This document shows, piece by piece, positions 17,783 to 63,253 of a stretch of 64,000 bases of DNA. Below the pieces are notes generated by a model. That model was given only the letters and a program-made list of their open reading frames with translations, was not told the origin of the DNA and ran no database searches. A program made the position numbers and the translations under genes. Location: IMG/VR virus record IMGVR_UViG_3300006163_000001; one strand, 5' to 3'. This stretch comes from a virus. Position 1 is the first letter of the stretch. Each line of letters begins with the position of its first letter.

Positions 17783-19441
17783 CCTCGCGCTTTCATGAGG
17801 TGGCCTGTCCGCAGGCTGATCAGAAACACAGAAAGTGCTCTTGACCTGCAACGATAGGACTTGCTGAGGGTCCTGTTGGCTGCGAGGGAAAGAGCACTTT
17901 CCGGGTGAGAGAGCCTATCGCGTCGTACCCGCGTGTCCGTGTCCAGGGAGACGGCCGCCAGGTGGTCTCGCAGGCTGGCTCGGTCCTGCTGGTGGAGACG
18001 GTCCGTAGAACCGGCCTCGACCAGGCGATATCCGCGGCGCTGGCACCGTGGCGCAAATCCCGGGCCGTCCATGATCCGGGGAAGATCCTCCTGGACGTCG
18101 CACTGGCGGTCGCGCTGGGCGGGGACTGCCTGGCCGATGTCGGCATGCTGCGGGCCGAGCCCGCCGTGTTCGGGCCGGTCGCCTCCGACCCGACGGTCTC
18201 CCGCCTGGTCGACACCCTTGCAGCCTCCGGAGAGAAAGCTCTGCGGGCGATCCGTGCCGCGCGGGCCGAAGCACGCCAGTGGGCCTGGCAGTTGGCCGAC
18301 GGGAAAGCGCCCGATGCGGGCAGGGCGGTGACCGTCGATCTCGACGGGGTGCTGGTGATCGCGCACTCGGACAAGGAGGACGCCGCACCGACGTGGAAGA
18401 GAACCTACGGTCACCACCCGCTGATGGGGTTCGTCGACCACGGACCGGGCGGCACCGGTGAGCCGGTGGCGGCCCTGCTCAGGCCGGGGAACGCGGGATC
18501 GAACACGGCCGCCGACCACATCACCGCCACCCAACTGGCCCTGGCTCAACTGCCGAAGAAGTACCGGCGCGGACGCCAGACTCTGATACGCACCGACTCC
18601 GCGGGCGGCACCCACGACTTCGTCGCCTGGCTCGCCCAGCGAGGACGGTGGCTGTCCTACTCGGTCGGCATGGTGATCACGGACACGATCCACCAGCACG
18701 TGCTGAAGGTTCCGGCGTCGGCCTGGACGCCCGCCGTCGAGGCCGACGGGGAGATCCGTGACGGCGCCTGGGTCGCCGAACTCACCGGCGATGTCCTGGA
18801 CGGCTGGCCGAAGGGCATACGGCTGATCGTCAGGAAAGAACGACCGCACCCTGGAGCTCAGTTGAGGCTCACGGACGCGGACGGCATGCGGCTGACCTGT
18901 TTCGCCACCAACACCTCCGGCCGGCCGATCGCCGAACTCGAGCTCCGTCACCGGCTGCGGGCCCGGGCCGAGGACCGCATCCGGGCTGCCCGGGCCACCG
19001 GCCTGCGGAATCTCCCTTTGCACCGCACCGCCCAGAACCGGATCTGGCTGGAGATCGCCCAGATCGCACTGGACCTGCTGGCCTGGATGCCGATGCTCGC
19101 ACTGACCGGCACGGCCAGGCTCTGGGAGCCCCGCCGACTGCGGCTCCGTCTTTTCACCACGGCCGGACAACTCGTGAACACCGGCCGTCGGCGGATCCTC
19201 CGCCTGGCCCGGCACTGGCCCTGGACCAGCCACATCACCACAGCTCTCGAGCGGCTCGCACTCCTGCCGAACCCCGGCTGACCAACGGATTCCCGTCCCT
19301 ACGACAGCAGCTCAACACTCGGAGCAGTGGAACCCGGCGCCACCCCGAGGCGACACTCGGGCCCTGGGCCTGCACAGCCTTCGCCCACGGCACGAAAACG
19401 GTCCACCGACTCCGTCGGCGGACCGTCACGAAACTTCGAGG
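17783..19441 (+). mobile_element. IS1380-family insertion sequence (1659 bp) with 4-bp target-site duplication
   Basis: Imperfect terminal IRs CCTCGCGCTTTCATGAGG / CCTCGAAGTTTCGTGACG (rc). CTAA direct repeats at 17779-17782 and 19442-19445. Single transposase ORF. Confidence 0.85.
17905..19281 (+). CDS. IS1380-family (DDE) transposase
   Basis: 458 aa with the characteristic N-terminus ...VQGDGRQVVSQAGSVLLVETVRRTGLD and overall family resemblance. A 12-bp IR (17831-17842 / 17890-17901) lies just upstream of the GTG. Confidence 0.9.
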   Translation: MREPIASYPRVRVQGDGRQVVSQAGSVLLVETVRRTGLDQAISAALAPWRKSRAVHDPGKILLDVALAVALGGDCLADVGMLRAEPAVFGPVASDPTVSRLVDTLAASGEKALRAIRAARAEARQWAWQLADGKAPDAGRAVTVDLDGVLVIAHSDKEDAAPTWKRTYGHHPLMGFVDHGPGGTGEPVAALLRPGNAGSNTAADHITATQLALAQLPKKYRRGRQTLIRTDSAGGTHDFVAWLAQRGRWLSYSVGMVITDTIHQHVLKVPASAWTPAVEADGEIRDGAWVAELTGDVLDGWPKGIRLIVRKERPHPGAQLRLTDADGMRLTCFATNTSGRPIAELELRHRLRARAEDRIRAARATGLRNLPLHRTAQNRIWLEIAQIALDLLAWMPMLALTGTARLWEPRRLRLRLFTTAGQLVNTGRRRILRLARHWPWTSHITTALERLALLPNPG

Positions 19442-44808: not shown

Positions 44809-44885
44809 GCGACCATGATTGATGCGGAGTCCCGGCAGCAGGGGTGCCTGCCGGACTACCGCACCACCACGACAAGGGGGCGAGT

Positions 44886-46169
44886 ATGGCCAGACGAGCG
44901 CGAGACGTCTACGTCGAATGGCGCGGCGGCACATGCCGCGTGAAGTGGTGGACCGGCGAGTACCACGACGACGGCCGCAAACGCTTCGAGTCCAAGGGCG
45001 GCTTCACCGACGAGGACGAAGCCTACGACTACGGCCTCGACAAGATGAGCGAGATCCGGCACGGCACTGGGGTCTCCAACCGCGACGGCGCCACCCTCAT
45101 GACGGACTGGATCGAGGACTGGTTCGCGGCCACGGACCACACCTATACGACACACAAGAGCTACAAGGCCATCATCAACAAGCACATTCGCCCGTACTTC
45201 CGCGGCAAGACCGTCGGCGAGGTCGACGTCATCGCCTACCGGGCCTTCCGGATGCACATCCAGAAGAAGCTGCCGGCGGCGGGAAGCGTGCGCAACGTCA
45301 TGATGGTGCTGAATATGATCCTCGACGATGCGGTTCCCCGACTCATCAAGGTTTCGCCCGTCGAGCGCAAGCGGCAGCGCGGCCGGTACGTCAAGAAGAC
45401 GCAGCGGGAACGCAAGCGGGACATGGACATCGCCGCCGTCGACCAGCTGGCACGCAACGCCGAGGTCGTCTTCGGCTACCCGGGCTACGTCATGATGTGG
45501 ACGATGGCCGTGACCGGCATGCGGCCTGGCGAGCTCTTCGGCCTGCGCCGCGAGTACTGCTACCCCAACTGGCCGGCCAACGACCCCCGCCCGGATCCGG
45601 ATGAACAGGAACGGTACGAGGACGACGTGCTCCGCTACGGCAAGGGTGAAGGGCTCATGCCGGCCATTCGCGTGCAGCAGCAGGTGCAGCAGGAGAAGGG
45701 GCGACTGGCTGAAGTGCCGCCGAAGTACTTCTCCTACCGGACGCTGGTGGTACCTCAGTTCCTGGCGGACATGCTGGAGAAGCTGCTGGCCTCGCACGAC
45801 AGGCAGTGGGTCTTCCCTGCCATCGAGGGCGGATGCTTGGGGACGGCACGGTTCTCGGCCGACTACTGGCCGCCCATCTCGCAGGGCGCCGAGGAGCGCA
45901 AGAAGGTCCGCGGCGGACGGAATCAGCGGCCCGTGATTCCTGTCGTGCCCGACTTCGACGGCAAGCGCATGTACTTGCTCAGGCACGGCCACAAGGCATG
46001 GCTGGACGAGGACGGGCACAGCCGGTTCGCGGTGGAGTCCCGGATGGGCCACGAGGTGCCGGGAGTTGAGGGCACGTACAGCAGCGTGACCGTGCCGATG
46101 GAGCGTGCGATTATGGCGGCGCTGCAGGAGCGCTGGGAGAGGCACCAGGAGGACCGAGACGGCTCCTGA
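44886..46169 (+). CDS. int: tyrosine integrase
   Basis: ATG preceded by GGGGG. N-terminal SAM-like core-binding region. C-terminal LLRHGHKAWL...MGHEVPGVEGTYS (catalytic His/Arg/Tyr context). Confidence 0.9.
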   Translation: MARRARDVYVEWRGGTCRVKWWTGEYHDDGRKRFESKGGFTDEDEAYDYGLDKMSEIRHGTGVSNRDGATLMTDWIEDWFAATDHTYTTHKSYKAIINKHIRPYFRGKTVGEVDVIAYRAFRMHIQKKLPAAGSVRNVMMVLNMILDDAVPRLIKVSPVERKRQRGRYVKKTQRERKRDMDIAAVDQLARNAEVVFGYPGYVMMWTMAVTGMRPGELFGLRREYCYPNWPANDPRPDPDEQERYEDDVLRYGKGEGLMPAIRVQQQVQQEKGRLAEVPPKYFSYRTLVVPQFLADMLEKLLASHDRQWVFPAIEGGCLGTARFSADYWPPISQGAEERKKVRGGRNQRPVIPVVPDFDGKRMYLLRHGHKAWLDEDGHSRFAVESRMGHEVPGVEGTYSSVTVPMERAIMAALQERWERHQEDRDGS

Positions 46170-51567: not shown

Positions 51568-52584
51568 CTACAGGCCGATGTCCTCGGATGCGGCGTCGGT
51601 CCATTTGTCGGCTTCGCGGATGTAGCCCCAGAAGGCGGGGCTGTTGGCGGCATGCCCGGACTGAGCGCGGATCTTCTCCTCGCGCTTCCCGGCTCGGCGG
51701 CTGGTGGTGATGAACCCGGCTCGCATGCTGTGCCCGGTCAGCCGTACCGACAGGCCGGCGCGTTCGGCGTTGCGGGCGATGATCTCGCGGACGGCTTCCG
51801 GGGAGAGCGCGCGGTCGCCGATCCGACCGTGGACAGTGATGGGCAGGAAGGCGGGCCCGCCGGTGATTCCGGCGGCCGCGCGCCAGGTCGACCAGGCGCG
51901 GACGGGGCAAGTGTCGGGGTCCTTGCCGTAGGCGACGACGACGTCCCGGGGCGGCCGCCCTTTCACCGCGGGGACGTGGACGTCGAGTCCTTGGCTGACG
52001 AGGCTGATGCCGTCGGCGGTTAGGGCGGCGACTTCGGCGGAGCGTCCGGCGATGCCGAAGGCCATGAGCCAGAGCGCCCGGTCGCGGAGTCCGGTGAGTC
52101 CGGCGGCCGCGGCCGCGCTCATCTTGCGGAGTTGGTCTGGGGTGGCGGCGGCCGCCGGTCCGCGGCCGCGGGCTTGGCGTTCGGGGTTGGCCTTCATCGG
52201 CTTGAGGGCCTGCCGCGCTGCAACGGTCACGGCCTTGGGGACTTCGATGCCGCGGCCGCGAAGGGTGACGGTGACGCCGGTGATGCGCCGGTCGATCGAG
52301 TTGGGCGCGGCCGCCTTGATGGTGTCGAGCCAGACGACGAACCCAACGAGGGTGCCCTTGGTGACGGCGGTCAACGGCAACGGCTGCCCGGTACGTTCGG
52401 CGAGCCAGTCGTGGAACTCCTCCCAGAGCGCCCAGTCGTTGGCGTAGCTGCGTTTGGTGTTGTGGGGGCGGATGGCGTCGAGGTGCTTCTCGGCTGCCTC
52501 TTCCATGGCGGCCAGGACAGCGAGTGTCGCAGCGTCGTAGGCGGCGGGGGTGGCGTCCGGCTGGCGGGGGACGAGGTCGGTCAT
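51568..52584 (-). CDS. second tyrosine recombinase/integrase
   Basis: Internal ATG with ATGA overlap. NTKRSYANDWALWEEF (SAM-like N domain), AGRSAEV, HSMRAGF and GHAANSPAFWGYI (RHRY context). Confidence 0.85.
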   Translation of the reverse strand: MTDLVPRQPDATPAAYDAATLAVLAAMEEAAEKHLDAIRPHNTKRSYANDWALWEEFHDWLAERTGQPLPLTAVTKGTLVGFVVWLDTIKAAAPNSIDRRITGVTVTLRGRGIEVPKAVTVAARQALKPMKANPERQARGRGPAAAATPDQLRKMSAAAAAGLTGLRDRALWLMAFGIAGRSAEVAALTADGISLVSQGLDVHVPAVKGRPPRDVVVAYGKDPDTCPVRAWSTWRAAAGITGGPAFLPITVHGRIGDRALSPEAVREIIARNAERAGLSVRLTGHSMRAGFITTSRRAGKREEKIRAQSGHAANSPAFWGYIREADKWTDAASEDIGL

Positions 52585-52964
52585 GCCGACGCCTCGTTTT
52601 CGGAAGCCTCGTCGGCCATGCGGCGCAGCAGGTCGGCGGCGTCCATGACTCCGCCGTTCCATGCGTCGCGGTAGGTGTCGTAGCCGTAGTCGTTGCAGTC
52701 GGTGTCGTAGTCCATGCGACCGAGCTGGTCGGCAGCCTCGCGCAGCACGGCAGCCCGCCCGTCACTCGCGGGTAGCAGGCCCAGCCGCCGAGCCACGGGG
52801 TCCTGGTCGAGAGGCGGAAGCGCCGGGTCTCGACCGGCCAGCGCCCTCACGATCTCGAACTGCCCCTCGATCGCCTCCCGCTGCTCCGGCGGCAAACTCG
52901 ACAGGTCCGGCTCGGGGCCGAGGCCGCGCAGGAACCGCAGGTACTCCTCGATCAGGTCAAGCAT
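52581..52964 (-). CDS. hypothetical protein
   Basis: 127-aa ORF. Shares LPPLDQDPVARRLGL with gene 22865-24127. Confidence 0.65.
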   Translation of the reverse strand: MLDLIEEYLRFLRGLGPEPDLSSLPPEQREAIEGQFEIVRALAGRDPALPPLDQDPVARRLGLLPASDGRAAVLREAADQLGRMDYDTDCNDYGYDTYRDAWNGGVMDAADLLRRMADEASENEASA

Positions 52965-54486: not shown

Positions 54487-55116
54487 TTGCATGTCCATCA
54501 CTGGACATGTACCGTACTGGACATGACGCGACAGACCAGTGCACCCCTCGAACACCTGAGCCTGAACGCGGCCGACCGCCAAGCCCGCGAGATCGCCCGC
54601 TCGTTCACCGAGTTCGGCCTCGACCTCAACCCGCCCTACCAGCGCGGCCGAGTCTGGACCGAGGACCAGCAGATCGCCCTCATCCGGTCGTGGCTCACCG
54701 GCACCCCCACCGGAGTAGTCATCTTCAACGACCGCTGCACGCCCGAGTGGAAGGACGCCAACGGCTACGACCCTGCCGAGCGCGACGAGGCTATCTACGC
54801 GTGCATCGACGGCCAGCAGCGCATCAGCGCCGCCCGCGCCTGGTTCGGTGATGAGCTCGCGGTGCCCGTCTCGTGGTTCGCCCCCGAGGACGTCGCGCAG
54901 ACCGAAGACACCGACGACGGCCCCTACGTCCGGTGGAGCGGACTCACCCTCCCCCGGCAGCGGCACTTCGCCAACCGGGCGCACCTCACCGTCGCGACCG
55001 CCCGCGTCGCCACGGTGCAGGACGAGGCCGCGATCTACCTCCTCGTCAACGGCGGCGGTACCCCGCAGACCGATGCCGACATGCAGAACGCGGCCGACGT
55101 GGCGGCGCAGCGATGA
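54487..55116 (+). CDS. DUF262 (ParB-like nuclease superfamily) protein
   Basis: NPPYQRGRVW and CIDGQQRISAA hallmarks. Start is ambiguous (TTG 54487 or ATG 54523). Confidence 0.75.
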   Translation: MHVHHWTCTVLDMTRQTSAPLEHLSLNAADRQAREIARSFTEFGLDLNPPYQRGRVWTEDQQIALIRSWLTGTPTGVVIFNDRCTPEWKDANGYDPAERDEAIYACIDGQQRISAARAWFGDELAVPVSWFAPEDVAQTEDTDDGPYVRWSGLTLPRQRHFANRAHLTVATARVATVQDEAAIYLLVNGGGTPQTDADMQNAADVAAQR

Positions 55117-55883: not shown

Positions 55884-56062
55884 CCCGCGAGGAGTACGAG
55901 GCCCAACTCCGCCGCCTCGACAACGACATCGAAGCCGCCTACGCCACATTCAACCGCGCCCGCGACCACTGGGACGCACTCAGCAAGGAACGCCGCGAAC
56001 TCCACTGGCAGTGGCGACGCCAGCAGCAAGCCGACGCCCTGGATGCCGCCGCCGAGACGTGA
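55880..56062 (+). CDS. hypothetical coiled-coil protein (60 aa)
   Basis: ATGA overlap and GGAGG upstream. Confidence 0.6.
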   Translation: MTREEYEAQLRRLDNDIEAAYATFNRARDHWDALSKERRELHWQWRRQQQADALDAAAET

Positions 56063-56064
56063 GC

Positions 56065-56095
56065 GGTCCCCGCCTGCCGTTAACAGGCGGGGACC
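56065..56095. terminator. bidirectional stem-loop between convergent genes
   Basis: GGTCCCCGCCTG-ccgttaa-CAGGCGGGGACC, 12-bp stem. Confidence 0.7.
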
Positions 56096-56180
56096 ACCCC
56101 GAAGCGTAGCCGCACAACGAAGCCGCCCCCGCTCCCCCGCCGCCATCGGCAGCGAGAGGAACGAGGGCGGCTCTGTTCGG

Positions 56181-57809
56181 TCAGGCGGCCTGGTTCTCCC
56201 ACGGCCAGGCGGCGTCGCGCCCGCGCGAGAGCAGGTCGACCATGGTGAACAGCTTGTCGGAGAAGCCGGCCACCTCGTACCGGTTGGGCTTGCTGCTGTC
56301 GATGGTGGCCTGCGCGTAGCCGGTGGTGTTGATGCCGAACATGGGGACGTGCGCCGGGATCGCGTCGGACACAGATACGTCGGAACGTCGGCCGTAGCCC
56401 CAGCCCAGACCACGTGTTCCGTAGCCGGGGTGAGCAAATGCCTGCATGTCGGAGATGATGACGACCCGGTCGTGGCCCCTGAACGACGCCTGCAGTGCGA
56501 CCACCGTCTCGGTTCCATGGCCGACTTCGCCGATCCGGTTGCAGAACGCCTCAGCCTGACGGAGGACGGTGCCGCCCTTGGTGAGCGAGTGCTGGAAGGC
56601 GCCGTCTGCGTAGCCGACGAGGTCTACATCGCAGCCGCGCGCGGCGAGAGCGACACCGAAGAGGGAGCCTACGTCGACGTGCCGGATCTGACTCTTGCCG
56701 GACACGCTGTTCCGCATCGACGCCGACGTGTCGACGAGCACGAGGGTGCGGCCCGTCAGGGCGGGGATGTTTGCCGTCGACTCGGACAGCGCCTGCTCGA
56801 GCGCATGCCCCCAGCGCAGCGACGGCGCGGCGCGGTAGGCGGACAGGAACCGGTACGGGAACTGCCGCGAGCGGCGGACCTCTTCCCGGTCAGCCAGCCG
56901 TGCACACACCTGGGCTGCGACCTCATCCGGGACGCCGGCCTCGTCGAAGTTCCTGAGATTCCTCGTCAAGGCCATCAGCCCCATCTGCGGGATGATCGCC
57001 GACCAGGCGGCAGCATCCATCTTCCCGAGGGACGACAGTTGCTCCCACGTCATGCCGGCGTCGCCGAGCCGCGCCGGATCGGCGAGGAACCAGGCGCGCC
57101 GCTCCGCCTCGGGCATCTCCATGGCGGCCCGGTAGGCGGACAGGATCGGGAGCCGATCGGTGACGCGGACCGTGCCGCGGTTCCAGCGCCGGTCGGCCAG
57201 GTAGTCGAACAGGTCGGCCTGCCACTGTCCGCGGGGCTCCGGCTTGGCCAGGGCCACGATGTCCGCCATCCGCCACTGCGACGCGGCGCCGTCGTACTTG
57301 AGCGCCGACTTCTCCGTGTACAGGCGCGCCACCGCATCCGCGACACCCCGCTGCACACCGCCGGGCAGCGTCTTCTTGCCGGTGCGCTGCTTCCAGTAGG
57401 CGAGGAACTCGGCGGGCTCGTCGGCCCGCAGCATGGCGTCGGCGACCATCTTCCGCACCGGGATGGTTGGTTCGCGGTCGCAGCCCGTCTTGCGGGCGAG
57501 CGCGGACTCTGCGGCCATGACGATGGCCGCGGACCGCATGTTCATCTGGCCGCGCAGATACGGGACGAACGCGGCGACCCAGTCGGGGTCCTGCTTGGTG
57601 GCCGCGTGGACGAGGTTCCGGAAGCGCTGGTCGCGGTCGCCGGCCTTCTCGTAGAAGGTGTCCTCGCCGACCATGTTGGTGGCGGCGAAGATGAACAGGT
57701 CGCTCTTCACGTCGCGGGTGAAGGCGGCGCCGCCCTCAAAGGTGGCCGTCGTCCCGGTCGTAGTCACGGGGCTGGAGGGTGCGGTGCGGGTGCGGGCGAA
57801 CTTCGCCAT
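56181..57809 (-). CDS. rsr: Ro60 ortholog (TROVE domain + vWA domain)
   Basis: ATG preceded by GAGGAGA. TROVE-like N-terminus (FAATNMVGEDTFYEKAGDRDQRFRNLVH). vWA MIDAS motif LVLVDTSASM. Confidence 0.85.
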   Translation of the reverse strand: MAKFARTRTAPSSPVTTTGTTATFEGGAAFTRDVKSDLFIFAATNMVGEDTFYEKAGDRDQRFRNLVHAATKQDPDWVAAFVPYLRGQMNMRSAAIVMAAESALARKTGCDREPTIPVRKMVADAMLRADEPAEFLAYWKQRTGKKTLPGGVQRGVADAVARLYTEKSALKYDGAASQWRMADIVALAKPEPRGQWQADLFDYLADRRWNRGTVRVTDRLPILSAYRAAMEMPEAERRAWFLADPARLGDAGMTWEQLSSLGKMDAAAWSAIIPQMGLMALTRNLRNFDEAGVPDEVAAQVCARLADREEVRRSRQFPYRFLSAYRAAPSLRWGHALEQALSESTANIPALTGRTLVLVDTSASMRNSVSGKSQIRHVDVGSLFGVALAARGCDVDLVGYADGAFQHSLTKGGTVLRQAEAFCNRIGEVGHGTETVVALQASFRGHDRVVIISDMQAFAHPGYGTRGLGWGYGRRSDVSVSDAIPAHVPMFGINTTGYAQATIDSSKPNRYEVAGFSDKLFTMVDLLSRGRDAAWPWENQAA

Positions 57810-57860
57810 GCGTCGGTCTCCTCGGCAAGTTGAGGGTTCCGGGCCGACGGTCAACTGCTG

Positions 57861-57998
57861 GGCGCCGCGAGTACCTGTCGCGTGAGCTACATAGCGTGCT
57901 GCCGTTACACCACAGCCAGGATCACCTGGCCACCAGGATTCGAACCTGGACTACTCGAACCAGAATCGAAGTATGCCCCTGCTGCGCTTCGCGGCGCC
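57861..57998 (-). ncRNA. Y-RNA-like module C with circularly permuted tRNA-like domain (138 nt)
   Basis: Ends pair over 10 bp (GGCGCCGCGA / UCGCGGCGCC). T arm CCAGG-UUCGAAU-CCUGG. 8-bp acceptor-like helix capped by UGAU. D arm GUGU-AACGGCA-GCAC. Confidence 0.6.
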
Positions 57999-58058
57999 TA
58001 TGCAGTTGTCGGCCCGGCCGCGAGGCGACCAGAACGAGGGCGGCGACTGAACACGGGA

Positions 58059-58196
58059 GGCTGGCGAGTACCAGGCGCGCGAGCTACGTAAGCGCTCTAG
58101 CCAACTGAGCTACACCGACCGAGGTCGGCGACAGGACTCGAACCTGCGACCTCTCGCTTAACAGGCGAAGTAGGCCCGCACTGCGCTTCGTCAGCC
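58059..58196 (-). ncRNA. Y-RNA-like module B with circularly permuted tRNA-like domain (138 nt)
   Basis: Ends GGCUGACGA / UCGCCAGCC. Anticodon-like arm UUCGC-CUGUUAA-GCGAG. T arm GCAGG-UUCGAGU-CCUGU. 7-bp helix capped by CUCG. D arm GCUC-AGUUGGCUA-GAGC. Confidence 0.6.
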
Positions 58197-58226
58197 ACCC
58201 GTATCCAGTTGTCGTCCCCGAAGGGT

Positions 58227-58296
58227 GCTGCGAGTACCTGGCGCCTGAGGAACTGATTCCAGAGCAGGGAAGTAACCCCAGGCTTCGCTTCGCGGC
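58227..58296 (-). ncRNA. Y-RNA-like module A (simple stem-loop, no tRNA-like domain)
   Basis: Shares the flanking motifs CGAAGCGAAG and CAGGUACUCGC with modules B and C. Internal 8-bp helix GCCUGGGG / CCUCAGGC. Confidence 0.45.
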
Positions 58297-58376
58297 GATC
58301 GCCACCGTAGCAACAGGGCACGCCAGACGTCTCCACCTTTTGCCCTTTTCGCAACATGACTTGCCGAACGTGCGAA

Positions 58377-58410
58377 TCGCCCCGCCCTCCCCGATGGGAG
58401 AGCGGGGCGA
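58377..58410 (-). terminator. stem-loop downstream of HNH gene / upstream of RNA array
   Basis: TCGCCCCGC ... GCGGGGCGA with inner CTCCC / GGGAG pairing. Confidence 0.55.
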
Positions 58411-58541
58411 ACACCTGTCGGTTCAGAGGCCGAGTGCGACGGACAGGCTGACGTAGAGATGGACGAGAACGGACAGCATCGGTTCACCCCCTCTCCCGGC
58501 TGGTGGGGCAGTCGGGCTGCGGCCGGTGGGGCGGCCGACGG

Positions 58542-58859
58542 TCACAGGGTGGGCGCGGGCGTGAGTCCGTGTTCGGCGGCGATCGCGAGACCCTGCTTGG
58601 CCAGGGCGACGCAGCGGCGCGGGATCGCCGACACGTCCCGGCCTGCCAGGATGGCGTCTATCGAGGCGTGAACATCGCCATGACATGACGGGCAGATCGC
58701 GACGATAGGCGTGGCCACCGGCACTCCGGCCGCCTCCCACCAGCTGAGCGGGGCGACATGGTGCCGGTTCAGCACCGCACAGCCGTGCCCCTTATATAGG
58801 GAGCAGGCCTGCAGTAGGACGCGGCCGTCGGCGACGACCAGCTCCCGCGGCGTGCTCAC
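58542..58859 (-). CDS. HNH endonuclease-like protein
   Basis: NRHHVAPLSWW...ICPSCHGDVH. GTG with GTGA overlap. Confidence 0.65.
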   Translation of the reverse strand: MSTPRELVVADGRVLLQACSLYKGHGCAVLNRHHVAPLSWWEAAGVPVATPIVAICPSCHGDVHASIDAILAGRDVSAIPRRCVALAKQGLAIAAEHGLTPAPTL

Positions 58860-60767: not shown

Positions 60768-61156
60768 GTTGCCTCCCGCTGCCGCACGGGCTCGATGTCG
60801 ACAGCGGTGAGCGCGTCGGGCCAGTTGGTGAACCGCACGGCGCGGTCGTCGATGTACGCGATCGCGGCCAGCTTCCGGTCCGTGACCAGCAGGACGCCCT
60901 GCTCATTCCAGAACCCGGAGCGCGGCACGCGGGTGGTGCACTCGAAGGCGTAGCCGGACTTCTGCTCGATCCACCGCGCGACCTGCTTGGCATCGCGGGT
61001 GGTGTGGATGAACACGGCGTACCGCTGCATGAGCTGCGACAGGGCGACAACTGCGCCGGGCTTCCAGTCGCCGTAGATCGTGCCGTCGTGCCAGCCCTTG
61101 TCGTAGCTGTGCAGGACGCCATCGAAGTCCACGGCGACCGTCTGGACAGCGGTCAC
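60764..61156 (-). CDS. HAD-like phosphatase/nucleotidase-fold protein (130 aa)
   Basis: GTG with GTGA overlap. VAVDFDGVLH (DxDxV motif I). Confidence 0.6.
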   Translation of the reverse strand: MTAVQTVAVDFDGVLHSYDKGWHDGTIYGDWKPGAVVALSQLMQRYAVFIHTTRDAKQVARWIEQKSGYAFECTTRVPRSGFWNEQGVLLVTDRKLAAIAYIDDRAVRFTNWPDALTAVDIEPVRQREAT

Positions 61157-62031
61157 TCGACCACCGTGAACCCGTGCTTCGCGCCGAGCTTCGACAGGCT
61201 GGTCTGGCCCGGGATGCCGTCGGCTGCACTTCCGGTGTAGTTGAGGCGCTGCTGCCACGCCTTGTAGGCGGAGACCGTCTTCGATCCGAAACTGCCGTCG
61301 ACATACTGGCTGGCCAGCAGGCCCTCCGCCTGCAGCGCCTTCTCGACGAGAAGGACTTCGGCCTTGTAGCTGGCGTGTCCCTGCGCGGCGGCCGGGTCGT
61401 GCTCCGCGGCGTACACGGCGTGCGCGAGGCTGACCTTGGGCTTCGTCGTCGGAGTGACCGGCGTGGGGCCGACGGCGAACAGGTCCGGCATCGGTCCCGG
61501 ATCGACATGACTGTTCCCAGGGATCTGGTGGTGCCCGTAGTGCCCGCCGTGGTTCAGCCAGGTGTCCAGCGGGACGGTGTCGCGGGCGAACGCGGTCGGC
61601 GCACCGCCGGGCCAGGTGTCGGCGATACCCAGCGACCGCAGCCACGCCATGATGCCGTCGAGGCCCTTACATGGGGTGTCGCGGACAGTGGCGTACTTCT
61701 TGCCGTTCACGGTCTCGCCCGCGGTGAACACGGTCTCGATCTGGATGCAGTAGGCGCCCGTGCGGTTCGTCCGCACCGTGCCGTCGTTCTGCAGCGACAG
61801 GCTGCGGCTGTCAGCCGGGAACATCTGCGCGATCTCGCCGGTGAACGGCTCCCACAGCAGGTGGGGGGCCATGTCGGCGCCGCCTCCGGTGAACCAGCCG
61901 AGCTCGTTCTTGAACGACCAGTCCTTGTCGTTGCTGGTGATGTGCCAGACGGCCCGCGCCGGGCCGCCGTCCATCGCACCGGTGTTGCCGAGCGAGTGCC
62001 GGGCCGCGCCGGGCATCCACAGGTCGACCAT
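61153..62031 (-). CDS. endolysin: N-terminal catalytic domain (class unresolved, amidase-like) plus C-terminal PG_binding_1 domain
   Basis: C-terminus YKAEVLLVEKALQAEGLL...VDGSFGSKTVSAYKAWQQRLNY...ADGIPGQTSLSKLG. Lies in a lysis-cassette context. Confidence 0.8.
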   Translation of the reverse strand: MVDLWMPGAARHSLGNTGAMDGGPARAVWHITSNDKDWSFKNELGWFTGGGADMAPHLLWEPFTGEIAQMFPADSRSLSLQNDGTVRTNRTGAYCIQIETVFTAGETVNGKKYATVRDTPCKGLDGIMAWLRSLGIADTWPGGAPTAFARDTVPLDTWLNHGGHYGHHQIPGNSHVDPGPMPDLFAVGPTPVTPTTKPKVSLAHAVYAAEHDPAAAQGHASYKAEVLLVEKALQAEGLLASQYVDGSFGSKTVSAYKAWQQRLNYTGSAADGIPGQTSLSKLGAKHGFTVVE

Positions 62032-62300
62032 CAGACACGCTCCCAGTCGTCAGCGAGTGCGTCGCTCTGGCTGATGACCCACGGGACAAAGTCGTCCTGC
62101 GCGGTCTTCATCATCAGATACGGCCGGAAGATGCAGACGGTGCCCTGCGGGATGCCCGTCGCCTCGGCCGTGTTGGCGTTGATCGGGATACCGTCGGGGT
62201 AGCCCTTCTGGTGCACCACGAACATGCCCGTGCCGTTCCAGCCGGACCGGGAGATACGGGCGCCGTCCTTGGCCGCCCTGAGCGCTTCACCGAAATCCAT
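62031..62300 (-). CDS. DUF2829-family protein (Tad2-like)
   Basis: ATG preceded by GGGAG. MDFGEALRAAKDGARISRSGWNG...PYLMMKTAQDDFVPWVISQSDALADDWERV. Confidence 0.7.
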   Translation of the reverse strand: MDFGEALRAAKDGARISRSGWNGTGMFVVHQKGYPDGIPINANTAEATGIPQGTVCIFRPYLMMKTAQDDFVPWVISQSDALADDWERV

Positions 62301-62302
62301 GG

Positions 62303-63253
62303 TCAGGCTCCCGTCACGTTGTTGTCGTGCGCCCACGCCTTCATCGCCTGCCACGCCTGAACCAGGTGAGGATCCAGGACAGGAGCCGGAGAAGGAGCGG
62401 GCGACGGAGGAGGGGAAGGCGCCGGGGCCGGCTGCGGCGGGGCGACGACCGGGAACGGCTTGCCGTTGGTCAGCACCGCGTAGTCCGCGGCCATCGCGGC
62501 CAGGTCGATGCCCTCCTGGAACGCAGGGTGCTTGAGGTGCTCGTCGAAGATGGCGACCCAGGCCTCTTCGACCTTCCGCGACCAGTACTGGTCGGTGAAC
62601 GAGGTCTCCTGCGCCCAGGTGATGAAGCGTTCGTCACCGCCGAGCGGGCCTGCGCCCGGGGCACCGTAGCCGCCGGTGATGACGGAGTGGCCGCCGTCGT
62701 CCGGCGACGAGCGGTGGTAGTCCCAGGGCTTCCCGTCGTTGAAGTCCTGCATGTTGGCGTTCTGGACGATGAGGCCGGTCCAGACGAAACCGAAGATACT
62801 GATGGCGGCCTTGACCTCGTCCGGGCTGGAGGGATCGACCTTGGCGAAGGCGAGGACCTTCTTGCCGTCCGGGCCGCCGTGCTTGTGGAGGTATTCCAGC
62901 AGGGTCTGGATGTCCATGCCGTTGTCGTGCGACGAGCCGGGCCCGTTGGTGTCGGCGGTGCCGTTCGGGTCGAAGCCCGAGTTCTGCGTCTTGTAGACGG
63001 TCCACACCTCGTCCTGCGAGGGGTAGTCCTCGACGCCGGCAACGTAGCTGACGAGGCGGCGGACGTTGGCCCATGTGACCGCCACGCAGTCCCCGGCGAC
63101 GTCGTTGCCAAGCATGTCCCACGCGGAGAGCCGGGCCAGGTAGTCGGCCGCGACCGGGTGTGCCGGAATCTTCCCCGTGAAGATGCGGGAGAACTTCAAG
63201 GCCGGCGTGTTCTTCGGCGCGCGGCGGCCGTACTGCAGAGAGGAGGTGGGCAT
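62303..63253 (-). CDS. papain-like cysteine peptidase (candidate second lysin) with Pro-rich linker
   Basis: ATG 63253 preceded by AGGAG. Cys motif GDCVAVTWAN, His motif GGHSVITGGYG, and linker PPQPAPAPSPPPSPAPSPAP. Confidence 0.65.
   Translation of the reverse strand: MPTSSLQYGRRAPKNTPALKFSRIFTGKIPAHPVAADYLARLSAWDMLGNDVAGDCVAVTWANVRRLVSYVAGVEDYPSQDEVWTVYKTQNSGFDPNGTADTNGPGSSHDNGMDIQTLLEYLHKHGGPDGKKVLAFAKVDPSSPDEVKAAISIFGFVWTGLIVQNANMQDFNDGKPWDYHRSSPDDGGHSVITGGYGAPGAGPLGGDERFITWAQETSFTDQYWSRKVEEAWVAIFDEHLKHPAFQEGIDLAAMAADYAVLTNGKPFPVVAPPQPAPAPSPPPSPAPSPAPVLDPHLVQAWQAMKAWAHDNNVTGA

Follow-up and report, generated by a model that had tools for sequence, protein, structure and literature searches.

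YrlA RNAs were described beside the Ro60 genes of 254 bacteria and 22 phages by Chen et al. 2014 (PMC4201824), who define them by the motif GNCGAAN0-1G near the 5' end, a YUAY sequence, a T arm, an acceptor-like stem-loop and a D arm, sometimes with a "V" stem-loop before the T arm; their likeness to a circularly permuted tRNA has already been published (bioRxiv 10.1101/312249). Other hallmarks of the class are a stable RNA that Ro60/Rsr binds in vivo, and either pseudouridine 55 with dihydrouridine or cleavage by RNase P. Here we analyse three tandem Y RNA-like modules, A, B and C, which lie directly upstream of a Ro60 gene in the window, the whole 64,000-nt stretch of the virus record IMGVR_UViG_3300006163_000001 that was studied. 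The YrlA of Mycobacterium smegmatis is ~147 nt long and has an acceptor stem of 7 bp; RNase P cleaves it and CCA is added to it. It lies in tandem with YrlB upstream of rsr, both RNAs coming from one shared precursor (PMC4201824). In Thermus phage phiLo, two Y-like RNAs (Yrl1 and Yrl2) encoded upstream of Ro60 bind the protein and form a ternary complex with the host PNPase (2025, PMC12135203). The RNA family, its resemblance to a permuted tRNA and its tandem arrangement were all known before; what is new here is modest and consists of the anticodon-arm geometry of a hairpin and a gap in the coverage of the Rfam model.

The M. smegmatis locus is alike in that its YrlA and YrlB stand one after the other upstream of rsr and share its strand, with a CGAA-type Ro motif near the 5' end and a YUAY sequence. 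Its YrlA has a hairpin before the T arm, followed by the T arm, a 7-bp closed acceptor stem and the D arm, and YrlB is the shorter hairpin RNA. The published 5' probe for this YrlA implies UUAC-CA-CUUCUAA-UGG-AAUGGUC, with the same 7-nt CU...AA loop type as found here. By comparison, the window holds two YrlA-type RNAs and a single short one, a full 5-bp hairpin stem and a phage- or plasmid-like metagenomic element as its setting. The YrlA of Salmonella Typhimurium (RF02553; PDB 6CU1) has its T arm, closed acceptor stem, UA and D arm permuted in the same way, and it shares the tertiary-contact nucleotides, the Levitt pair and a Ro-binding helix formed from both ends. It differs in that the helix of its ends is the anticodon-stem equivalent, placed 1 nt after the D stem, and no hairpin precedes the T arm, whereas the window family has a separate 5-bp/7-nt hairpin at the anticodon-arm position, which is joined to the closing helix by 0 nt, and a linker of 5-6 nt between the D arm and that helix. 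The phiLo RNAs are alike in belonging to a mobile-element Ro60, in numbering more than one directly upstream of it and in carrying the CGAA motif in a bulged terminal stem; in contrast to the window, no tRNA-like domain was reported for them and the host lineage is unrelated (PMC12135203). Permuted tRNA genes of Cyanidioschyzon merolae and of some archaea also place the 3' half first, close the acceptor stem with a loop and pair their ends. However, these precursors are cut by a splicing endonuclease at a bulge-helix-bulge and ligated into normal tRNAs, while the joining helix of the window modules is a conserved, predicted Ro60-binding module without a bulge-helix-bulge.

The modules upstream of Ro60

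Modules A, B and C lie in tandem on the minus strand, directly 5' of the TROVE/Ro60 gene (57809-56181), and together span 58296-57861. The region is very probably a polycistronic array of three Y RNAs of the downstream Ro60 gene, in which A is YrlB-like and B and C are YrlAs of the actinobacterial type. This reading draws on the sequence and architecture of the modules, their conservation and covariation, the tRNA tertiary signature of B and C and the linkage to Ro60. Module A (58296-58228, minus strand, as are all array features below) is a short YrlB-like Y RNA of 69 nt, matched at 58225-58298 (E 6e-6) by R1, a covariance model made from 11 B- and C-type sequences. Modules B (58196-58059; R1 135.6 bits) and C (57998-57861; R1 114.1 bits) are both YrlA-type and 138 nt long; B contains a complete tRNA-like cloverleaf in permuted order, and C is more diverged. 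The 3' ends of C, B and A lie 52, 250 and 419 nt, respectively, from the Ro60 ATG at 57809, so that the array occupies 52-487 nt upstream, inside the ~4 kb around a Ro60 gene, on its strand, where YrlA genes are expected. The gene encodes a 542-aa Ro60/Rsr orthologue with a TROVE domain (E 5e-17) and is preceded by the Shine-Dalgarno sequence GAGGAG at 57823-57818. The protein matches VWA_2 weakly (17.9 bits, below the 27-bit cut-off), and its orthologues in Streptomyces and Streptosporangiaceae genomes are 75-84% identical.

All three modules share the 5' flank ..CGAAGCG(A/C)AG and the 3' flank C(A/U)GGUACUCGC.., in which the block GGUACUCGC is conserved throughout, and the outer ends of each module pair together, in C as the 10-bp helix GGCGCCGCGA / UCGCGGCGCC. 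UACUUC is common to all three module types, and YUAC stands before the hairpin as in published YrlAs (PMC4201824). In module B, GACGAAG fits the published Ro motif. We infer that the bulged terminal helix CGAAG(C)G / GGUACUCGC (CGAAG / GGUACUCG) is the Ro60 docking site. The original prediction, made by a model from the letters and their open reading frames (ORFs), had listed the shared flanks and the tRNA-like elements together with the 138-nt length of B and C and the 10-bp outer stem of C, and all are present on the minus strand at the coordinates given here. Its assignment of the modules to the Y RNAs is supported by the adjoining TROVE gene on the same strand, by CGAAG in a bulged terminal helix and by the T arm, acceptor hairpin and D arm.

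Module A consists of a terminal helix, GCGA/UCGC, with the CGAAG motif, then an internal loop and an 8-bp upper stem, GCCUGGGG/CCUCAGGC. The loop of 25 nt is 68% pyrimidine, starts UUACUUC and is able to form UUCC-CUGCUCU-GGAA; T, acceptor and D elements are absent from the module. A consensus fold shows that this architecture is kept in 7 orthologues, with one compensatory pair and several wobble changes in the upper stem. Module A is YrlB-like in having a Ro motif in the terminal helix, a long, pyrimidine-rich hairpin loop and an incomplete tRNA domain; YrlB is without a sequence-defined family, and the match is an architectural one.

Protein-coding ORFs across the array were ruled out, as a screen for ORFs with high G+C at third codon positions selected none across 57855-58541 and the gene calls on the source contig leave a 733-nt gap over the Y-RNA region. 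The three RNAs are possibly transcribed jointly from a candidate -10 box of the form TAnnnT, TACGGT at 58309-58304, which lies 8-13 nt upstream of module A and was recognised by alignment, where relatives have TACGCT, TAGGCT or TATGCT at this position. Upstream of the array, a G+C-rich hairpin, GCCCCGCUCUCCC-AUCG-GGGAGGGCGGGGC (58408-58373), matches only the terminator-hairpin portion of the Atu_C7 model and is probably the end of the preceding transcription unit. The spacers before B (58202-58214) and C (58003-58015) share GACAACUG(G/C)AUA, and the A-B spacer contains the tetraloop hairpin CCCC-UUCG-GGGG at 58216-58227. Both the spacer motif and the tetraloop hairpin are conserved in loci L003, L004 and L007, relatives taken from the search described below, and may be processing signals between the Y RNAs.

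Permuted tRNA-like domains and their conservation

In both B and C, the elements follow the order anticodon-like arm, short variable loop, T arm, closed acceptor-like hairpin, U8-N9 and D arm. The predicted Ro60-binding helix of module B has GGCUG-A-CGA then AGCGCAG as its 5' strand (58196-58181), which contains GACGAAG, and GGUACUCGCCAGCC as its 3' strand (58072-58059). Between these strands lie the anticodon-arm mimic UUCGC-CUGUUAA-GCGAG (58169-58153; 5 bp, 7-nt loop, U33, A37, A38), the variable loop AGGUC, which includes C48, with the T arm GCAGG-UUCGAGU-CCUGU (58152-58131), the 7-bp acceptor-like hairpin CGCCGAC/GUCGGUG with the loop CUCG (58130-58113), and U8-A9 with the D arm GCUC-AGUUGGCUA-GAGC (58112-58094; A14, G15, G18, G19, A21), which is followed by G26. 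Module C has the arm UUCGA-UUCUGGU-UCGAG, the variable loop UAGU, the T arm CCAGG-UUCGAAU-CCUGG, an 8-bp hairpin with a UGAU loop, U8-G9, the D arm GUGU-AACGGCA-GCAC and the pair A15:U48; its greater divergence shows in U8-G9 and in the D stem GUGU/GCAC.

The permuted-tRNA description of B and C is correct, and the predicted Ro60-binding helix exits the cloverleaf between positions 26 and 27. In native order, ARAGORN found 0 tRNA genes in the window, and the Rfam tRNA model reached 26 bits (at 58195-58123) and 16.9 bits there, under its gathering threshold of 29. Module B was de-permuted by joining the segment from the 5' acceptor strand through G26 to the segment from the anticodon-like arm through the 3' acceptor strand, and with these exact boundaries it became a perfect ARAGORN cloverleaf, called tRNA-Asn(gtt). 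For C, tRNA-Gln(ctg) was the commonest ARAGORN call over a sweep of cut points. Among 65 family modules, 60 gave ARAGORN tRNAs when de-permuted at 26/27, compared with 9 in native order and 33 with a shuffled hairpin. Inspection of the supported structure shows a single 1-nt bulge in the closing helix of B (positions 16-27 with 110-120), with the Ro motif below it, and no 3-4-3 bulge-helix-bulge motif in that helix. Single-sequence minimum-free-energy folds of B and C did not recover the cloverleaf and gave the T arm and acceptor hairpin only, plus a D-arm-region hairpin in C; the structure was therefore set by hand and tested by covariation.

Species-representative genomes were scanned with the Ro60 protein, which yielded 80 actinobacterial loci. 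The closest of these (75-84% protein identity) keep the layout of the window, with A, B and C in L003-L007 and A and B only in L008 and L009. The R1 model holds 33 pairs and treats the acceptor hairpin as unpaired; because MAFFT misaligned this length-variable region, the acceptor pairs were omitted and the hairpin was scored per sequence. R1 gave 135 matches (E < 0.01) in the 83 sequences searched, mostly full-length and nearly all upstream of Ro60 on the same strand. At least one match was present in 64 of the 80 actinobacterial loci, from many actinobacterial families, and the modules of the relatives end 25 to ~100 nt upstream of the gene. Two long modules within 1 kb upstream were found at 30 of the 80 loci and three at 7, and T-loop motif spacing suggests up to four in some loci. 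Arrays of two or three tRNA-mimicking Y RNAs are thus common at actinobacterial Ro60 loci (37/80), and a phage pair has been published (PMC12135203), so that the original prediction overstated the case in calling the tandem array notable. R1-type modules also occur in Xylella, Microbacterium, Gordonia, Streptomyces, Arthrobacter and Mycobacterium phages. In blastn searches against phages, the core of B matched unannotated DNA directly 5' of Ro-like genes in Xanthomonas and Xylella phages, and also a stretch of Microbacterium phage SM23 that is annotated as tRNA-Asn. Xylella phage Usme (L002 2004-2613; 44 kb, proteobacterial host) has, upstream of its Ro-like gene, three YrlA-type modules in tandem, none of them annotated, and the proximal one carries the loop CUGUUAA, identical to that of module B in the window.

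Covariation and geometry were counted on the 65 best matches. In this alignment, which was fitted to the model structure, standard pairs fill 92.9% of the cells, compared with 72% in column shuffles and 40-51% when the partners were slid, and 27 of the 33 pairs show changes on both sides. The terminal helix (helix 1) is 98.4% paired, with compensatory changes in 6 of 8 pairs, and the anticodon-like hairpin (helix 4) is 93.9% paired, with such changes in 4 of 5; the closing helix reaches 82.5%, the T arm 99.7% and the D arm 99.6%. The 15:48 Levitt pair is G:C in 38 modules, A:U in 23 and A:C in 4, B having G15:C48 and C having A15:U48. A14, G18-G19 and U8 are invariant, A21 is present in 64 of the 65, and the acceptor stem has 7-8 bp in 43 of the 65 relatives. 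The results agree with the original prediction, which had placed the exit of the RNA ends exactly at the 26/27 junction and had expected an ordinary tRNA search to fail, a permuted one to succeed and the helices to covary in homologous phages.

The acceptor-hairpin loop starts ACCA in L007 2298-2438, L010 648-786 and L073 2229-2371 (e.g. CCGGUCC-ACCACAC-GGGCCGG). This encoded ACCA, a discriminator plus CCA right after the 3' acceptor strand, recalls a tRNA separated from the next one by only a very short spacer, and it fits a dimeric-tRNA origin and RNase P processing. Most other actinobacterial relatives carry CCGGUGCG in place of the GNCGAAN0-1G-type motif. In L011-L082, most modules have the 5' end CCCGGUGCGCAGG and the 3' end CUUGA(U/C)CUCGGG, replacing CGCGAAGCGCAG and GGUACUCGCG, and CGAA-type motifs are found in only 23 of the 65 modules. 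These L011-L082 flanks resemble the strands GGUCCGA...CUUGAC, which make up the Ro-binding helix in Y RNAs of vertebrates.

The hairpin before the T arm and competing explanations

In the published view, the hairpin before the T arm is a V arm, a long variable loop "characteristic of class II tRNAs", and the helix of the ends is the anticodon stem. We observed that the hairpin consists of exactly 5 bp closing a 7-nt loop in 57 of the 65 modules. Within these 57 loops, position 1 is a pyrimidine in 51, position 2 (U33) is U in 52, position 6 (37) is a purine in 53 and position 7 (38) is A in 55. The loop after the hairpin is 5 nt long in 50 modules and 4 nt in 15, and it ends in the Levitt-pair pyrimidine. 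The closing helix runs into the hairpin with 0 nt between them in 61 of the 65, while the D stem is separated from the closing helix by 5-6 nt (consensus R-C-(Y)-U-A-Y) in 54. Class II variable arms have 3-5-nt loops. The hairpin geometry suits an anticodon arm better than a class II variable loop, although as far as the sequence goes either helix could stack under the D stem.

The triplet in the anticodon position is variable. The orthologues of module B carry GUU (window), GAG, GUG, CAG, UGG, GUG and GCG, that is, 6 different triplets in the 7 that keep the 7-nt loop, and the copy in L003 is without such a loop. Across the family, 57 modules show 30 different triplets; the most frequent is GUU (11), which stands on differing stems, including those of two unrelated phages. 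The description of the two loops as Asn-like and Gln-like, which the earlier prediction had singled out, is without demonstrated meaning, because the triplet is not conserved among close orthologues. An enrichment of U33-G34-U35, the Tgt/queuosine recognition motif, was considered and set aside, since 16 of 57 compared with ~10 expected from column frequencies is unconvincing given the shared ancestry. In the module C orthologues of L004 (2323-2452), L005 (2331-2447) and L006 (2330-2446), the anticodon-like hairpin is lost and the D arm has diverged, while the Ro-type flanks, UACUUC, the T arm and the acceptor hairpin are retained. At least one paralogue can therefore do without the hairpin, as these copies persist after its loss. 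The combination of anticodon-arm geometry and an unconstrained triplet gives a testable handle on what the tRNA-like end of YrlA binds. One possibility, which we regard as unlikely, is that the hairpin of actinobacterial and phage YrlAs is a true anticodon stem-loop mimic, each RNA being a complete tRNA with a Ro60 handle at 26/27. In that case, the freely evolving triplet would allow a mobile element to offer anticodon-directed host nucleases or modification enzymes a set of bait tRNAs, held by Ro60 and an exonuclease and working either as decoys or as sensors of damage to tRNAs.

As for how the three Y RNAs might act, analogy with characterised systems suggests how they would be transcribed and processed, how they would bind Ro60 and what effector they would meet. 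A single precursor would be cut into separate RNAs, which then bind Ro60 through the bulged helix into which the 5' and 3' ends of each RNA close. A second partner would meet the pyrimidine-rich loop of A or the L-shaped tRNA mimic of B and C; in D. radiodurans, S. Typhimurium and Thermus phage phiLo, the second partner is PNPase. The 7-bp acceptor hairpin of B would probably be opened by RNase P and then receive CCA, as reported for M. smegmatis YrlA (PMC4201824).

Several points weigh against the reading of the region as a Y-RNA array. The Rfam scan suggested in the original prediction gave no match on the window at the gathering threshold. In E-value mode, Rfam YrlA (RF02553) matched the T arm-acceptor-D arm core of B (58154-58091) with 36.4 bits (E 3e-6, model positions 24-84 of 114), and its gathering score of 69 bits is unmet in the window and in 20 related actinobacterial and phage loci. 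Family membership accordingly rests on the architecture and this sub-threshold match; because 0 of the 21 sequences reach the gathering score, the Rfam model misses this clade. Modules A and C have CGCGAAG, in which the first G of the Ro motif is replaced by C. A consensus scan of 55900-58700 found no sigma-70-type promoter and no terminator, a scan that does not cover high-G+C actinobacterial promoters. In addition, fitting the alignment to the model structure inflates the percentage of paired positions; the slid controls and the number of pair types argue for real structure.

Among the other explanations, the tRNA-shaped ends could serve as decoys or sponges for host tRNA-targeting nucleases or other anticodon-loop binders, with Ro60 as carrier or stabiliser. 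A hairpin that keeps the shape of an anticodon loop (7 nt, U33, R37, A38) but leaves its triplet free to vary would suit such a role, as would the setting on a mobile, phage-like element with a Tad2-like anti-defence gene ~4 kb off, the position of actinophage Ro-like genes and Y RNAs within tRNA arrays, and the proposal that phage tRNAs counter anticodon nucleases (PMC10264068). We nevertheless judge a decoy function improbable: neutrality predicts free drift of the triplet equally well, module C is kept in L004-L006 despite the loss of its hairpin, the same arrays occur at Ro60 loci of large bacterial contigs and chromosomes (sites that are possibly prophage), and characterised Y RNAs serve as tethers and gates. 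About equally improbable is a mainly cis-acting array, in which the modules form a structured 5' leader of the Ro60 mRNA and Ro60 autoregulates by binding its own leader. Module C does end 52 nt before the start codon with no terminator between them in the consensus scan, relatives show similar module-to-gene distances, and the M. smegmatis Y RNAs share one locus with rsr (PMC4201824). However, the Y RNAs of every tested system accumulate as discrete, stable, Ro60-bound RNAs, and a leader needs no tRNA-like domain; leader activity would also be compatible with a Y-RNA array rather than exclusive of it.

[quoted passage not shown] De-permuted B is flawless and has all invariant tRNA nucleotides, the acceptor stem measures 7-8 bp in most relatives (43/65), and some of them (L007 2298-2438 and L010 648-786) encode ACCA after the 3' acceptor strand. 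Against this, the triplets differ among close orthologues and include the stop-reading CUA and UCA, and module C has G9 and a diverged D stem. The predicted Ro60-binding helix of ~60 nt remains attached at 26/27, the closing helix has one 1-nt bulge and no bulge-helix-bulge, and we know of no bacterial splicing endonuclease that would remove this helix. Chen et al. also judged general aminoacylation unlikely (PMC4201824). Least probable of all, and scarcely credible, is that the modules are functionless, decaying tRNA genes or remnants of a tRNA dimer. This would account for the 26-bit Rfam tRNA match at 58195-58123 and the blastn matches to phage tRNA genes, and a dimeric-tRNA origin has been proposed for YrlA (bioRxiv 10.1101/312249). 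However, the permuted order, the position and the strand relative to Ro60 recur in 64 of the 80 loci and in proteobacterial phages, every helix and the Levitt pair are kept by compensatory changes, and the conserved Ro-type flanks are non-tRNA sequence. Decayed tRNA genes were rejected on the covariation and the fixed synteny with Ro60.

The mobile element and phage tRNA annotations

The window comes from a 94.6-kb metagenome contig, has 69% G+C and encodes a DnaB-type helicase, a sliding-clamp-like protein, a methyltransferase, an FtsK-like protein, an endolysin and a collagen-like protein. It resembles a temperate phage or phage-plasmid whose host would be Streptomyces-like. A transposase (17905-19281, plus strand; PHROG 11704, E 9e-78), an integrase (44844-46169, plus strand; PHROG 1, E 3e-33) and a weak integrase-family ORF (51568-52662, minus strand; Pfam Phage_integrase 25.5 bits, cut-off 27.1) together suggest that the mobile element is a mosaic or is nested. 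A 209-aa ORF on the other strand, ~1 kb downstream of Ro60 (54487-55116, plus strand), carries a GmrSD_N (DUF262) restriction-endonuclease N-terminal domain (E 7e-13). This ORF is the sole stretch that is similar in DNA to the Streptomyces phage-plasmid ZL12 (82% over ~570 bp), and beyond that match no close relative of the window was found in the phage database. A 107-aa Tad2-like (Thoeris anti-defence 2) ORF (62031-62354, minus strand; Pfam E 3.5e-24) lies ~4 kb from the Ro60/Y-RNA cassette and directly beside the endolysin gene (61153-62031). The window adds a clean, unannotated Ro60/Y-RNA cassette, carried by a mobile element of the Streptomyces type.

In actinophages, the Ro-like gene lies inside a tRNA array, in contrast to the window, which has no tRNA genes by ARAGORN. 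In four phages, full-length YrlA-type matches that lie just upstream of a Ro-like gene share their 5' part with a tRNA gene annotated in GenBank. The tRNAs in question are a tRNA-Arg(tct) in Gordonia phage VanLee (L086 1097-1236), a tRNA-Asn in Microbacterium phage SM23 (L001 1474-1609), a tRNA-Arg(cct) in Streptomyces phage GiJojo (L083 1263-1411) and a 91-nt tRNA-Pro(tgg) in Frankenweenie (L084 1260-1391), where the YrlA-type match is weak (E 5e-4). The annotations appear to be miscalls, the closing helix having served as a pseudo-acceptor, an error that ARAGORN likewise makes on 9 of the 65 native modules. Annotation pipelines thus appear to take the 5' halves of these RNAs for tRNA genes in deposited phage genomes.

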